Virus record (IMG/VR): IMGVR_UViG_3300028298_000030
Coordinates: 1-25,895 of that record
Source of the DNA: a virus
Reading direction: 5' to 3' (one strand)
DNA: 25,895 nt
Of the stretch, positions 13,180 to 17,243 are shown piece by piece. Within the stretch, counting starts at the first letter, position 1. The number at the start of each line of letters is the position of its first letter. Made by a program: the position numbers and the translations under genes. Below the pieces are notes generated by a model, which was given only the letters and a program-made list of their open reading frames with translations, did not search any database and was not told where the DNA came from.

Positions 13180-14007
13180 TTATTTCTTCAAAAAGCGGGG
13201 CGCGAGAGCGCATCTGCATTGGATAATCTGTGCTGCAGGTGCCCCCAGGCTTGAATCGGCGGGATACATCATTTTACAGGCTGGCACCCGGGTGTTCTTC
13301 GATGCCATGAAGGCCGGCACCTCGAACGCTTCATCGACATCAATCACGACACCTTTCATGGCAAGATGCGACGGGCGGGTACGGTGATCCCCGGTAGTAG
13401 GCAGCCACTCTTTAAAGGGTGCGTAATCCTTCGTCCTACTCCAGGCCGCTTCGTTGTAAGATTGCGTACTAACCGTGCGGGCGATTGCCTCTGCTCTGAC
13501 AGCCCCGATGCCGTTGTAGTGCTGCTGGATGATCTCGGAGAACTTCGTGATACCAGCGCCTTTTTTGTCCGCTTCTACGATATCCCGGATGATCTTCTTG
13601 TTCATCTCGCCTGTGAACCCTTTGAGATCCGAGAGTGAAACTGCGGACAGGTTGGCGATGGCTCGTTCATCGGGGCGGGTGAAATTCAGGCCGATATCGA
13701 CAACTCTGTGCTGAGGGCGGGTCTGCGCAACAAGAGTCTGGTGCGTGTTGTCGATACCGCGCCGGTAAGCCTGCAGGACATACTGCTGGATAAGTCTGCG
13801 GCCCGGCTGGTCGATGTATGCGATATTGAGGATCTCCAGCAGCCGTATGAGTTCCCCGATATCGAGCTGCTGCAGCCGGAGCATCGGACGGAGCTCTTCG
13901 AGAGCCTTTGCCCGGGCGTTCCGGATCAGGGCGAGAAACTCGCGGGTGAAGATGTTGCGCACGGGACCGGAGGGATCGGATACTCGCACCGGAGATTTCT
14001 CCCTCAC
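13180..14007 (-). CDS. MuF-like (SPP1 gp7) minor head morphogenesis protein, 275 aa, without a toxin extension
   Basis: RAEAIART; KEW...GD.RTRPSH; G.VI...E.F; MYP.D; I.CRC. Confidence 0.88.
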   Translation of the reverse strand: MREKSPVRVSDPSGPVRNIFTREFLALIRNARAKALEELRPMLRLQQLDIGELIRLLEILNIAYIDQPGRRLIQQYVLQAYRRGIDNTHQTLVAQTRPQHRVVDIGLNFTRPDERAIANLSAVSLSDLKGFTGEMNKKIIRDIVEADKKGAGITKFSEIIQQHYNGIGAVRAEAIARTVSTQSYNEAAWSRTKDYAPFKEWLPTTGDHRTRPSHLAMKGVVIDVDEAFEVPAFMASKNTRVPACKMMYPADSSLGAPAAQIIQCRCALAPRFLKK

Positions 14008-14285
14008 TTCAATGAATTATTTAAGTCTGTTGCTTTTGCCCAGTCCAGAATTTCGACCGAGATAGAATCCAGATACTTTCGGATCTCATCTCGTGTATTA
14101 AACTTTTTCGGGAGAATCCATAAGATAATACGTTCTGAGTAGTTCCAGGATGTTGAGATTCTCTCAGAGATTTGTTCATCCTTCTGCGCCTGCTGAGCAA
14201 TATTCCAGCGGACAAGAAGACGGGCACGACCGTCATCAATCCTGTCCAAAAATATTTCATCCGGTTTTGAGTTCGAATTTGGCAT
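14004..14285 (-). CDS. Hypothetical protein, 93 aa (possible fibre chaperone)
   Basis: GAGGT RBS; abuts the RT-like remnant; overlaps the MuF start. Confidence 0.55.
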   Translation of the reverse strand: MPNSNSKPDEIFLDRIDDGRARLLVRWNIAQQAQKDEQISERISTSWNYSERIILWILPKKFNTRDEIRKYLDSISVEILDWAKATDLNNSLK

Positions 14286-14414
14286 TTACGCTACCTCTTT
14301 TAATAATAACGGACGGATATACTTTCTCTCAAGTCGATACGAATTACACCAGGATAACCACCCGTAATAACTGGCAATGACATTTCTATCTTGTGGGGGG
14401 TCAAACCGTGACAT
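14286..14414 (-). pseudogene. Remnant of a DGR-type reverse transcriptase C-terminus (42 codons)
   Basis: Hand translation: MSRFDPPQDRNVIASYYGWLSWCNSYRLERKYIRPLLLKEVA*. SY.GWL..C.S..L..KY resembles the terminal thumb motif of DGR RTs; it lies downstream of a DGR-type VR. Confidence 0.65.
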
Positions 14415-15016
14415 TACGGCACTCCTTTTCCAGCGAAAAACGACGGGTCTAATTCATACCCCTCCGGGCATGGTTCAAATTTTTTGTCAGATAAAAACCC
14501 CAATCCCCCGGTTTTTGATTTGTAAAAGTAGGGGGCGGTTTCTGCCATATCTAACGCACGACTGATCTTCCTTGTCAGCCACGCCCATCGTTTACCGTTT
14601 TTAATATCATTGATGGTTCTGACGGGGATATTACGATTCCTGCTAATCTGTGAACAGTTCAGGGTTTTAAGGTCTCTCACAATTCCAATAATCATTAATT
14701 GGGTGAGTTTATTATTTCCATTTCTCTCACCAAACGCCTTAACGGTACGTCCTTTTTTTGACATATCTTGCATGTTGTCTTTCGGAGTTCCTAAAAAGAG
14801 ATGCGCGGAATTAATACACATATGATTGTCACAGGTATGACACACCAACACCCCGGCAGGAATATCACCGTATAGTTGTGAATGGATGTACCGGGCGACA
14901 GTCCATTTCTTACCGGATTTCATTAATGTTGGGTATCCCCCGGTGTTCGGTGCATGAGAAGTACAGATATGACAACCATTCTCATTCACTTCAAAGGTTA
15001 TCGGGCGGGTTTTCAT
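14414..15016 (-). CDS. HNH homing endonuclease (HNH_3-type plus a C-terminal HTH-like segment), about 200 aa
   Basis: True start MKTRPIT at 15016; VCHTCDNHMCINSAHLFLGTPKDNMQDM.KKGR; AT-rich. Confidence 0.88.
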   Translation of the reverse strand: MKTRPITFEVNENGCHICTSHAPNTGGYPTLMKSGKKWTVARYIHSQLYGDIPAGVLVCHTCDNHMCINSAHLFLGTPKDNMQDMSKKGRTVKAFGERNGNNKLTQLMIIGIVRDLKTLNCSQISRNRNIPVRTINDIKNGKRWAWLTRKISRALDMAETAPYFYKSKTGGLGFLSDKKFEPCPEGYELDPSFFAGKGVP

Positions 15017-15132
15017 TTCTTTTTCACCCGTCTTTCGGTATCCCAATAAGGAGAATGACATTTCGGACAAATTTTTGGGTGTTTGTCTCCGCGCTGTGCC
15101 CACTCGTGCTTGCATCTGTTGCATTTGTGTAA
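15013..15132 (-). pseudogene. Startless Zn-ribbon ORF (39 aa)
   Basis: LHKCNRCKHEWAQRGDKHPKICPKCHSPYWDTERRVKKK*; CxxC..W..CPKC..PYW pattern; its stop overlaps the HNH ATG; no start codon after the fibre's TAA TAA. Confidence 0.6.
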
Positions 15133-15135
15133 TTA

Positions 15136-16848
15136 TTATCGGTATTCGAGCCGCGAGCCAACATACCGATAGACACATGACGCCGCACTATCCAGATCCC
15201 AAGCGAAAGCGCCCGCATTACCCGCACTACGCCAATCGCCGCCCAGCAGGGCCGAGCGATTTCCGGTTGCCTGATAATAATAATCACAGAGATATTGGCT
15301 GCTGGACCCTCCTACGGTCAATGGCACGAAGAGATAATCGAATGTTGAAGAGAAGACAATCGAGACCCCATAGTTATTTGTTGAAGGTAATGTGAATCCA
15401 GTATCCACATAGGGATGTGCGAAGGTATCTTCAACAAAATCATGGTCTGCAATCCAAGGATTCCTATTGGCTTTGATGTTGATGCCGGCAATCCATTTCC
15501 AGATATTTCCCCAGAAATTCTCAATCCCAAAGATGCTGAATGCCTTTGCTGCTTCTCCGGTCTTGTAGTGCGTAACCAAGGGGCATTCTCCGGAGGTGTT
15601 ACCGAGGTCCACCCCGTTGGTGCCGACCCCTGCCGTAAATCCTGTGTTTATGGCGTTGTTGAACGTTGATCCCGCTGTTGCATCGGTGACTACTGTCACT
15701 CCTGCATAGACCGACTGTGAGTTCAGCGTAGCGTTCCGGATAATGAAAAGCAACTGGACGGCACAGACCGAGTTGAAGTCCATGAAGTTCCAGCCGGTCC
15801 CCCGGTTCTTTGCGAGCTGCCGGATGTTCGGCAATGTTGCCGTTGCATTGTTCCAGCCGCTTAACGGCTTTACACCGGCGATTGAGCAGAGGAGATCTCC
15901 GGTCGTTGCGGTGAAATCCAAGCCACCTGCATCGTTCAGAACGTATCCCCCCGTTCCCGGCGTGGTCTTGGCAATGGTGCATGTCACCCCACATGCAGTG
16001 GGCATAATGACGGTGGTTTTCAGCCCGGTAACGCTGGATGTGTAGGTGAGTTTATCTGCCCCCGTTTTTGCCGGCGTCCATACCGTTTCCTGATAATCGG
16101 TTTTCGCACCTGCTGCCACGATCTTGTCAACAACACCTTCGACGGTATCATCATCGAGGATAGCCACGGTGAAGATATAATTCCCACCGAGGGTAATTGT
16201 CAGATTCCCGGACGATGTTGGTTCTGCCGTTACCGTGATTGTATTGACTTCCGTTGCTGTTGCAGTGACGTCGTTTGCCGATCCTTCAAAGGCCGAAACG
16301 TAGATGTAATCCTTTTCGACCGTGTCCACGACGAATGCCGGGTGGACTTTGTAGCCCGTTCGCGCCACCGGGTATATCGTGAACCGATATTTGTTCGAGA
16401 GTGCATCAACCTTGTAGTAAAATTTCGGGATACGGACCATTACCTGCCCGTTCGAACCGGTGTAGGAGAATAATGGATCTCCATAAAAGGCGGTCACCAC
16501 TCCCGCATTGGAGAGGTTGCATCGTCTGATAGCCCCGAATACTGCATGACTCGCCCAGTCCCCGGCAGACATCGTGATGGCCGCACCAAACTGGTTTACC
16601 AGAGTCAAAGTCGGGCTGGTGGAATCTGTCGCCCACTCAACACCGATCGGTAAATCGAGGGGTGAATAGGGCAAGTCCCCCCATTTTAAACCCGGTGTGA
16701 CCGAACTGTCAGCAATTAAGACCTGTCCGTTCGTTCCGACAGGCAATCTTGTAGCTGAATCCGCCCCAACCCCTGCCGGGAGATCTCCTTTTGCATCCCA
16801 GAGAGGATCGGTCGCAAGCGATCGTGACCTGATGTTGGTCATGATCAA
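15136..16848 (-). CDS. Fibre/receptor-binding protein with a C-terminal CLec (Mtd-like) DGR-target domain, 570 aa
   Basis: N-terminal shaft repeat KGDL...RLPVGTNGQVL.AD; GQVMVRIPKFYYK, HPAF, IYVSAFEG, GIENFWGNIW.W; ends GG.W...AG.F...L......GSRL. Confidence 0.85.
   Translation of the reverse strand: MIMTNIRSRSLATDPLWDAKGDLPAGVGADSATRLPVGTNGQVLIADSSVTPGLKWGDLPYSPLDLPIGVEWATDSTSPTLTLVNQFGAAITMSAGDWASHAVFGAIRRCNLSNAGVVTAFYGDPLFSYTGSNGQVMVRIPKFYYKVDALSNKYRFTIYPVARTGYKVHPAFVVDTVEKDYIYVSAFEGSANDVTATATEVNTITVTAEPTSSGNLTITLGGNYIFTVAILDDDTVEGVVDKIVAAGAKTDYQETVWTPAKTGADKLTYTSSVTGLKTTVIMPTACGVTCTIAKTTPGTGGYVLNDAGGLDFTATTGDLLCSIAGVKPLSGWNNATATLPNIRQLAKNRGTGWNFMDFNSVCAVQLLFIIRNATLNSQSVYAGVTVVTDATAGSTFNNAINTGFTAGVGTNGVDLGNTSGECPLVTHYKTGEAAKAFSIFGIENFWGNIWKWIAGINIKANRNPWIADHDFVEDTFAHPYVDTGFTLPSTNNYGVSIVFSSTFDYLFVPLTVGGSSSQYLCDYYYQATGNRSALLGGDWRSAGNAGAFAWDLDSAASCVYRYVGSRLEYR
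15148..15258 (-). repeat. DGR variable region (VR); template partner not in the window
   Basis: 111 nt with only 10 adenines; 12 codons at the canonical Asn/Ile positions are all NNT (GAT CGT AGT AAT GCT GAT GAT AGT TGT TAT TAT GTT). Confidence 0.75.
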
Positions 16849-17243
16849 TACCCCAGGTATTTGCAGTCGATTGTTGCTGCCGTTCCCCCGGTTTCACTCA
16901 CGAAGGTCAGACGGATATACCCCACTGCAGTTTCCGGGACGGTGAAGATATACGTGTCGTTTGCCGTGATCGTTGTGTCAAGGTTCGATATATCGAGGTT
17001 TGCCCAGACGGAATTATCCGGGCTACCCTCAACACGAACGACTACGGTTGTGTTGATAGCCGCCACGGTGACAAACATCGAATGGTTAATCCGTTCACTT
17101 GTGGCAAACCCGGTCGTGCTGCCCGGTGCCGTAAGTTGCGTGAAGGTATTCGCAAGCGAGTAACCAGTTGTTGATACCGGTAATCGGTTTGTCACGGACA
17201 CTTCACTCCCATCAGTAGTTACGAGTTTTACTGTTCCTGCCAT
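16845..17243 (-). CDS. Small beta-sandwich virion protein, 132 aa
   Basis: Thr-rich; VVVRVEGS.D...W and YIRL.F motifs; coupled to the fibre gene. Confidence 0.6.
   Translation of the reverse strand: MAGTVKLVTTDGSEVSVTNRLPVSTTGYSLANTFTQLTAPGSTTGFATSERINHSMFVTVAAINTTVVVRVEGSPDNSVWANLDISNLDTTITANDTYIFTVPETAVGYIRLTFVSETGGTAATIDCKYLGY

Follow-up and report, generated by a model that had tools for sequence, protein, structure and literature searches.

A phage fibre gene on the IMG/VR record analysed here, a stretch of 25,895 nucleotides which is referred to throughout as the window, ends in what comparison with related loci identifies as a genuine DGR variable repeat (VR), but the template repeat (TR), the RNA spacer and RT codons 1 to approximately 290 that accompany this repeat in relatives are shown by the same comparison to have been replaced in the window by an HNH cassette. 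This local replacement orphaned the VR, and we infer that the VR is now most likely a recently frozen allele, a reading to which a probability of about 0.6 is assigned. The element is a broken DGR, which is a known kind of element, in an undescribed state that combines an HNH replacement, a relic of the RT tail and orphan VR alleles that are polymorphic. The case supplies a concrete route of DGR loss, namely replacement by a mobile endonuclease gene, and it indicates that a VR can be recognized, and its lost TR largely reconstructed, from sequence alone; because surveys of DGRs begin from the RT, orphaned VRs like that of the window go unseen.

Table. Features of the fibre locus, in positions of the window.
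Feature	Position	Strand	Basis and remarks
DGR target gene, phage tail/receptor-binding protein	15136..16848	minus	ORF list, translation, phrog_5302
VR	15142..15261 (about)	minus	A-depletion and alignment to VR/TR pairs of relatives; encloses the span 15148-15258 first described
Junction filler, from fibre stop to conserved left end of HNH cassette	15108..15135 (28 nt)	minus	HNH leader starts at about QARVG
HNH (HNH_3) endonuclease cassette, leader and CDS	14414..15107	minus	PF13392, PHROG HNH families
RT gene relic, last 42 codons	14289..14414	minus	Thumb end, past RVT_1; open, starts at an internal Met of the RT
Conserved 93-aa gene	14004..14285	minus	Follows the RT, translationally coupled, in relatives

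A preliminary description, made from the letters alone, had read positions 15148-15258 (coding strand, minus: RSALLGGDWRSAGNAGAFAWDLDSAASCVYRYVGSRL) as a VR carrying the signature of adenine mutagenesis; limits set by alignment with relatives are slightly wider (Table). Its observations hold on recounting. The 111 nt contain A=10, G=44, T=30 and C=27 on the minus strand, so that there are 10 adenines over the 37 codons; nine of these lie in codon positions 1-2 of NNT codons (GAT, AGT, AAT twice, GAT, GAT, AGT, TAT and TAT), the tenth is the wobble base of TCA, and on the coding strand all 12 of the codons that had been named as variable end in T. Sliding 111-nt intervals across the fibre gene contain 27.9 adenines on average (sd 5.1), with the minimum at the VR stretch, and on the minus strand of all 25.9 kb the mean is 29.2 (sd 6.2) and the minimum 10, all of the intervals with 12 or fewer adenines falling at the VR stretch. 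The binomial probability of 10 or fewer adenines in 111 nt is 1.9e-5. Codons ending in T make up 14 of the 37 in the stretch, compared to 21% in the remaining gene (P = 0.012).

The interpretation of this pattern depends on the relatives of the fibre. Related loci were collected from viral (42), metagenome (63) and genome (7) collections, some contigs being present in more than one, and 53 loci, copies of a few contigs included, in which the 3' end of the fibre gene and 800 nt or more beyond it could be read were assessed. Most loci with enough downstream sequence carry a near-repeat of the final ~115 nt of the gene 50-100 nt past its stop, and in 35 of the 53 a TR (five or fewer non-A mismatches) is followed by an RT, although some of these RTs are cut by the contig end or lie in two frames. 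In most such loci VR and TR differ at 0-2 non-A positions, as against 14-28 at A; the mismatches fall on adenines of the downstream copy in 27 of 27 cases in L001, 19 of 19 in L005, 30 of 30 in L009, 26 of 26 in L025 and 25 of 26 in another locus. The RTs are 322-335 aa long, match RVT_1 over residues 69-267 (E 4e-17) and phrog_1423 (E 1e-117), and visibly contain the IGNYLSQ and YCDD motifs; in the closest clade they are followed by a translationally coupled ORF of ~100-130 aa which is a homologue of the window ORF at 14004-14285. The 12 variable codons of the window VR coincide with the AAT/ATT codons in the TRs of five relatives, and among eight close relatives each of the 12 sites carries four to six different residues while the scaffold residues between them are invariant. 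The proposed signature is thereby borne out: the repeat lies at the 3' end of its target gene, its variation is concentrated at TR-adenine positions, and the VR, TR and RT that would account for it are present in relatives.

Several features of the relatives' cassettes are of interest in their own right. The spacer of 50-100 nt between target and TR holds no ORF, and so none of the size of avd. Between TR and RT there is a conserved element of ~45 nt, GCCCCTTGGCAAAACATAACAACGAAAAACCC.GTG.TGGTAGGA (L001:11640-11760; L002:7590-7705; L007:11690-11790), which may be the DGR RNA spacer for priming; it is kept in L007 despite the deletion of the RT there, and the window lacks it. Hairpins or cruciforms 3' of the VR were considered as a test of target competence, but neither a stable nor a conserved one was found, even in intact relatives (z -1.1 to +1.9), which leaves this test uninformative. 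Perfect VR/TR pairs accompany an RT in two frames at L026:11435-12426 and L064:5415-6415, where either a frameshift or an assembly error is possible. At L035:8883-14322 three tandem fibre paralogues precede a single TR and RT; these were considered as an example of remote DGR targets and rejected, because the mismatches to the TR of the VR-like ends, which are identical in two of the three, are not A-specific (14/34).

The relatives also allow the TR that had been predicted for the window to be compared with real ones, and the prediction is right in its codons and deficient in its isolated adenines. All 12 of its AAT/ATT codons (11 AAT and one ATT, at codon indices 7, 9, 10, 13, 18, 20, 22, 23, 27, 29, 31 and 32) match the TRs of L001, L002, L003, L005 and L007, in which there is no additional and no absent AAT. 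Over 102 nt, however, the real TRs contain 31-32 adenines versus 24 in the prediction, which overlooked eight or nine isolated adenines in codons such as CTA, AGC, ACT, ACG and CAG. The predicted TR is identical to the five real ones at 78-87 of the 102 positions, compared to 64-73 of 102 for the window VR itself, and of the 32 mismatches between the window VR and the heterologous L002 TR, 24 are at TR adenines.

The accompanying claim that the TR is missing from the window stood up to an ungapped scan of both strands, whose best site has 28 non-A mismatches and lies in an A-rich stretch, and to a self-blastn search (word size 7), which returned no repeat of the VR within the window; the window thus holds no template repeat that matches the VR outside adenines. 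Viral and metagenome contigs gave no match to a 58-letter IUPAC pattern for a sibling TR/VR, although records near the window may be masked in this search, and a search of the protein collection for a TR-encoded short ORF gave no candidates. It had been proposed that the adenine signature would lose its meaning if homologous fibres without DGRs were equally A-poor. RT-less homologues are indeed equally A-poor, but this leaves the VR reading intact because the tree described below makes these homologues derived losses.

What occupies the place of the missing cassette can be read directly from the alignment of the slot downstream of the fibre. The HNH cassette fills the position that is held by TR and RT in relatives, and ~1.2 kb of resident DNA is gone. 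Its CDS most likely starts at 15016 (MKTRP..., 200 aa) and stops with TAA at 14414-14416; the product matches PF13392 with E 1.5e-5 (25.0 bits, against a cut-off of 24.8) and PHROG HNH endonuclease families with E 1e-22 to 1e-23. The columns H60, C62, D63, N64, C67, N69, H72 and N81 are invariant in 20 homologues, so that the catalytic His/Asn/His and the Cys ligands of HNH_3 are all present. The ~30-35 codons before the start (15017-15107, …VGTARRQTPKNLSEMSFSLLGYRKTGEKE) show protein-level conservation in HNH homologues found on unrelated contigs, and they would be either a real N-terminal extension or a conserved leader. Part of the 120 nt that separate the HNH start from the fibre stop was aligned to TRs by MAFFT, and a TR remnant was considered there; this was rejected because the stretch is the conserved HNH leader of unrelated homologues.

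On the far side of the HNH gene the end of the RT survives. The relic overlaps the HNH stop (TAATG) and ends in TAAATG onto the start of the next gene; it is 85% identical over 79 nt to L002 8599-8677 by blastn and 67% identical to L002 RT residues 290-332 by tblastn (E 1.6e-11). A search of all six frames of the window with the RT domain PF00078 at E <= 1 gave no match, and beyond these last 42 codons the window has no DGR-type RT gene. The 93-aa gene that comes next lies, by tblastn, directly after the RT in L001, L002, L003 and L005 and directly after the target in L006; the identical protein is found on seven contigs. Since the HNH gene stands in the TR/RT slot and the RT tail has survived, the local cassette was destroyed rather than overlooked, and the tail may have been kept for translational coupling into the next gene. 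Composition was examined as a sign that the HNH gene is foreign and was set aside: its GC is 0.43, versus 0.53 for most of the genome, but the RT tail and the gene after it have a GC as low as its own, so that composition fails to mark it as foreign.

The loss seen in the window is one of many in this fibre family. A maximum-likelihood tree of the domain, built without its last 40 residues (the VR), places the window as sister to the intact-cassette locus L001 (SH-aLRT 92), and both fall inside a starred clade of four intact cassettes. There are at least 12 changes between the intact and non-intact states on the tree, at least eight of them forced by starred branches, so that on this phylogeny the cassette was lost recurrently, at least eight independent times. 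The outcomes differ from locus to locus. L006 has a clean deletion, with the next gene 25 nt from the fibre stop; L007 keeps the TR, with eight non-A mismatches, and the post-TR element, its RT being reduced to an 11-codon tail; and L022 and L085 have RT fragments only. At L056:1870-3427 an IS200/IS605 element, consisting of a 134-aa TnpA-like Y1 transposase and a 367-aa TnpB, splits the RT at about codon 299, and the RT tail and the next gene resume beyond it. L093 (725-1327) has an HNH_3 gene 46% identical to that of the window, which starts right after the fibre stop, and no TR or RT; its fibre product is only 38% identical to the window's and is phylogenetically distant. Two RT-less records that have direct terminal repeats, L007 (CheckV 80%) and L020 (CheckV 100%), contain no RT anywhere.

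The nearest siblings of the window bear on whether its orphaned VR is frozen. The searches of the collections omit records very near the window, and the protein cluster tables include them. The 90% cluster of the fibre has four members, each of 568 aa, in which the siblings are 97-99% identical overall with 0-4 differences outside residues 525-563. P0232 has the same VR as the window and differs from it by I451V, N459D and A475S; P0230 has the same three substitutions and ~12-13 VR-region residues different from the window, and P0231 has the upstream state of the window and likewise ~12-13 different VR-region residues, the last two proteins being 97-98% identical to the window's overall. The siblings differ almost only at DGR-variable columns, and with the exception of E551 in P0230 the changes are nearly all compatible with the NNT, GNT or CNG products of adenine mutagenesis. 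Because siblings that are otherwise near-identical differ at the VR sites, the diversification was very recent, and because all four cluster members retain the lineage-specific non-variable residues (S565 and the ...RLEYR end), the alleles were made by a lineage-specific TR. The three upstream substitutions common to P0230 and P0232 are clustered at 15424-15498 (fibre residues 451-475), and VR allele 1 is found on both upstream backgrounds, a four-gamete indication that the VR has recombined with this patch 150 nt upstream.

The HNH protein is 100% identical on about nine contigs. One of these proteins, P0235 (on a 12,562-nt contig), is a form that starts inside the VR in the other frame, and its N-terminal read-through, RRPLSIGLLARGS as compared to RRHVSIGMLARGS in the window, decodes to TCC at codon 557 and to different codons at 558, 562 and 563. 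This would be a fourth VR allele, again lying immediately before the identical HNH gene, and the read-through also implies a junction of 18 nt of different sequence, as against 28 nt in the window. There are consequently at least two, and probably four, VR alleles among near-identical HNH-bearing siblings. The MuF form P0241 (NCBI, Logan, ENA, gem) occurs on four contigs, the longest of 19,369 nt, and the contig of P0232 is also 19,369 nt long, which suggests that this contig spans the region from fibre to MuF. A search of ~15 billion proteins yielded no full-length RT whose tail exceeds 73% identity to the relic; since no sibling-grade RT turned up while the HNH gene is present on about nine contigs, the siblings with intact cassettes would be unsampled.

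Two accounts would dispense with a lost cassette altogether, and both founder on the relatives. If the HNH arrangement were ancestral, relatives having gained TR and RT later and the window never having had a cassette, then the A-poverty of RT-less homologues would be explained, but nothing else would be; the retention of the last 42 RT codons in the right place and frame refutes this account, the window nests within a clade of intact cassettes, and an A-specific pattern requires a TR, so that it is regarded as highly improbable. The A-poor, NNT-rich stretch could instead be a compositional or structural trait of the lectin scaffold that arose without retrohoming, as might be suggested by the conservation of the motifs GG.W, AGAF.W and R..G.RL over thousands of fibre homologues. 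This is scarcely credible, because the same columns are AAT in the TRs of relatives, whose VRs differ from them only at A, which refutes it, and because the differences between siblings of 97-99% identity fall almost only in those columns.

A weightier rival has the VR still being rewritten in trans. In the preferred account, a TR much like those of the relatives (11 AAT, one ATT and several isolated A) would have written the VR through adenine-specific mutagenic retrohoming, after which a free-standing HNH gene would have replaced the cognate cassette (spacer, TR, RNA spacer and RT) from just past the fibre stop to RT codon ~290. This replacement would have left a 42-codon RT tail that still gives translational coupling into the next gene, and a locus with a target but without a template or enzyme of its own. 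The sibling alleles would have been made shortly before, or during, the spread of the HNH gene through the population. Spread of the HNH gene through a population that had already diversified, and whose alleles are now frozen, is judged, on balance, the probable course of events; the absence of intact siblings from the sampled sequences, the identity of the HNH proteins, the VR allele found on two backgrounds and the different junctions all agree with it. Against a frozen state stands the observation that the variable sites nearest to the junction (codons 558-563) are no less variable than those farther away, an outcome that short-tract co-conversion during homing, which should homogenize those sites, would not predict. 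If a single arrival of the HNH gene had preceded the divergence of the siblings, later rewriting of the VR, with a TR and RT acting in trans, would be required. The window record is ~54% complete by CheckV; the unsampled ~46% might hold a second cassette that supplies TR and RT in trans, or a sibling phage or prophage that carries a DGR might do so from within the same cell. Such a supply would account for the multiple VR alleles among near-identical HNH-bearing siblings, junction-nearest sites included, and for the lineage-specific residues kept in all of the alleles, which point to a lineage-specific TR; moreover, supply in trans is mechanistically possible, since in BPP-1 a separate target is acted on by a TR and RT that a donor plasmid provides (PMC3240598). 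It is nevertheless considered possible rather than likely. The 25.9 kb contain no TR or RT, the local RT relic shows that a cognate cassette was once here, and the two RT-less relatives with terminal repeats have no second RT. The protein collection is without a sibling-grade RT tail or a TR-like short ORF, the contig collections (in which near records may be masked) are without a sibling TR/VR pattern match, and the identity of VR allele 1 on the window and P0232 backgrounds suggests that the alleles are stable. The coexistence of several VR alleles in near-identical HNH-bearing phages provides a natural test of orphan-VR rewriting in trans.

The preferred account leaves room for a more active role of the endonuclease. 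The window and L093 have homologous HNH genes in exactly the same slot behind two phylogenetically separate fibres, and an HNH lineage might home into DGR cassettes by cutting the conserved TR/RT region of endonuclease-free phages and replacing the diversifier with itself. If this conjecture, which is at present improbable, were true, then a selfish element would spread by knocking out phage tropism-switching, leaving frozen receptor-binding alleles in its wake. Site-specific cleavage and homing by the HNH protein of the window are putative, the indirect indications being its presence or absence in close relatives and the homologue of L093 in the same slot. No general link between the HNH family and DGRs was found, in that within 4 kb of 83 more distant IMG/VR HNH loci there is neither a homologue of the fibre nor an RT. 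The window gene resembles free-standing phage HNH_3 homing endonucleases in its HNH_3 domain with a C-terminal helix-turn-helix-like tail, in being present or absent between close relatives, and in having a GC below that of most of the genome, but it differs from them in having removed ~1.2 kb instead of sitting between intact genes.

Comparison with described DGRs places the locus further. Like the BPP-1 DGR (mtd VR, TR and brt), its target is a receptor-binding protein of a phage, with a CLec fold at the C-terminus and the VR at the 3' end of its gene; AAY codons of the TR are randomized, and TR and RT lie just downstream, in this case in the relatives. Unlike BPP-1, the family of the window has no avd between target and TR, no GC-rich hairpin was found 3' of the VR, intact relatives included, and the window itself lacks both TR and RT. 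Incomplete DGR cassettes, with an RT “fragmented or deleted” in some genomes, have been described in Epsilon (also Alpha and Delta) crAss-like phages (PMC11054128; PMC12386605), and cassette decay as such is therefore already known. These share with the window a conserved receptor-binding protein with a patterned VR and an RT that is broken or lost, and P0001 also matches tail proteins of the crAss-like phages cr50_1, cr56_1 and cr111_1. The window differs from them in that its loss is an HNH replacement with a defined relic of the RT tail, and in the persisting polymorphism of its VR among siblings that carry the HNH gene. A search of the literature found no description of an HNH gene occupying the TR/RT slot of a DGR.

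The fibre itself belongs, on a predicted structure, to the proteins that such systems diversify. Its ORF has 570 codons from a TTG at 16848, gene callers starting at the ATG at 16842 to give 568 aa, and its stop codon is at 15136-15138. In PHROGs it is a “tail protein” (phrog_5302, E 1e-72). A Pfam search returned nothing, and a PDB sequence search returned only a marginal match to 5VF4, which is TaqVP, a DGR variable protein of Thermus aquaticus (bioRxiv 10.1101/432187); the profile match is weak (E 0.055) and spans GNxWxW and the C-terminal VR. A profile of the final 250 residues finds 6,012 cluster representatives at E <= 0.001. A first AF2 model built with 30 sequences was unusable (pLDDT 43.9), and one from a deeper alignment of 104 sequences, with pLDDT 93.9, was used instead. 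The best structural match of this model is TaqVP (5VF4: Z 18.7, rmsd 2.5 A over 206 residues; Foldseek E 4e-9), followed by BPP-1 Mtd (1YU0-4, Z 9.8-10.1), TvpA (2Y3C, Z 9.6) and formylglycine-generating enzymes (Z 8-9). From these matches the C-terminal 250 aa are, in the predicted model, the C-type-lectin fold used by DGR variable proteins, in which the VR would form the C-terminal binding surface. The likeness to TaqVP is structural, the sequence identity being ~20%; TaqVP is a cellular protein rather than a phage fibre, and the window protein has ~320 extra N-terminal residues.

A homologue of the fibre is encoded by the Methanosarcina virus MetMV (L043, MK170447.1 43200-44768; 30% identity over 77% of the length), an archaeal virus whose complete 67.8-kb genome is without an RT. 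In the window the fibre gene is grouped at 14004-17243 with a gene for a 132-aa DUF6385/Bbp16-like protein (PF19912, E 2.6e-6) and with the 93-aa gene, and this group sits between the portal gene and a MuF-like head gene, away from the tail genes.
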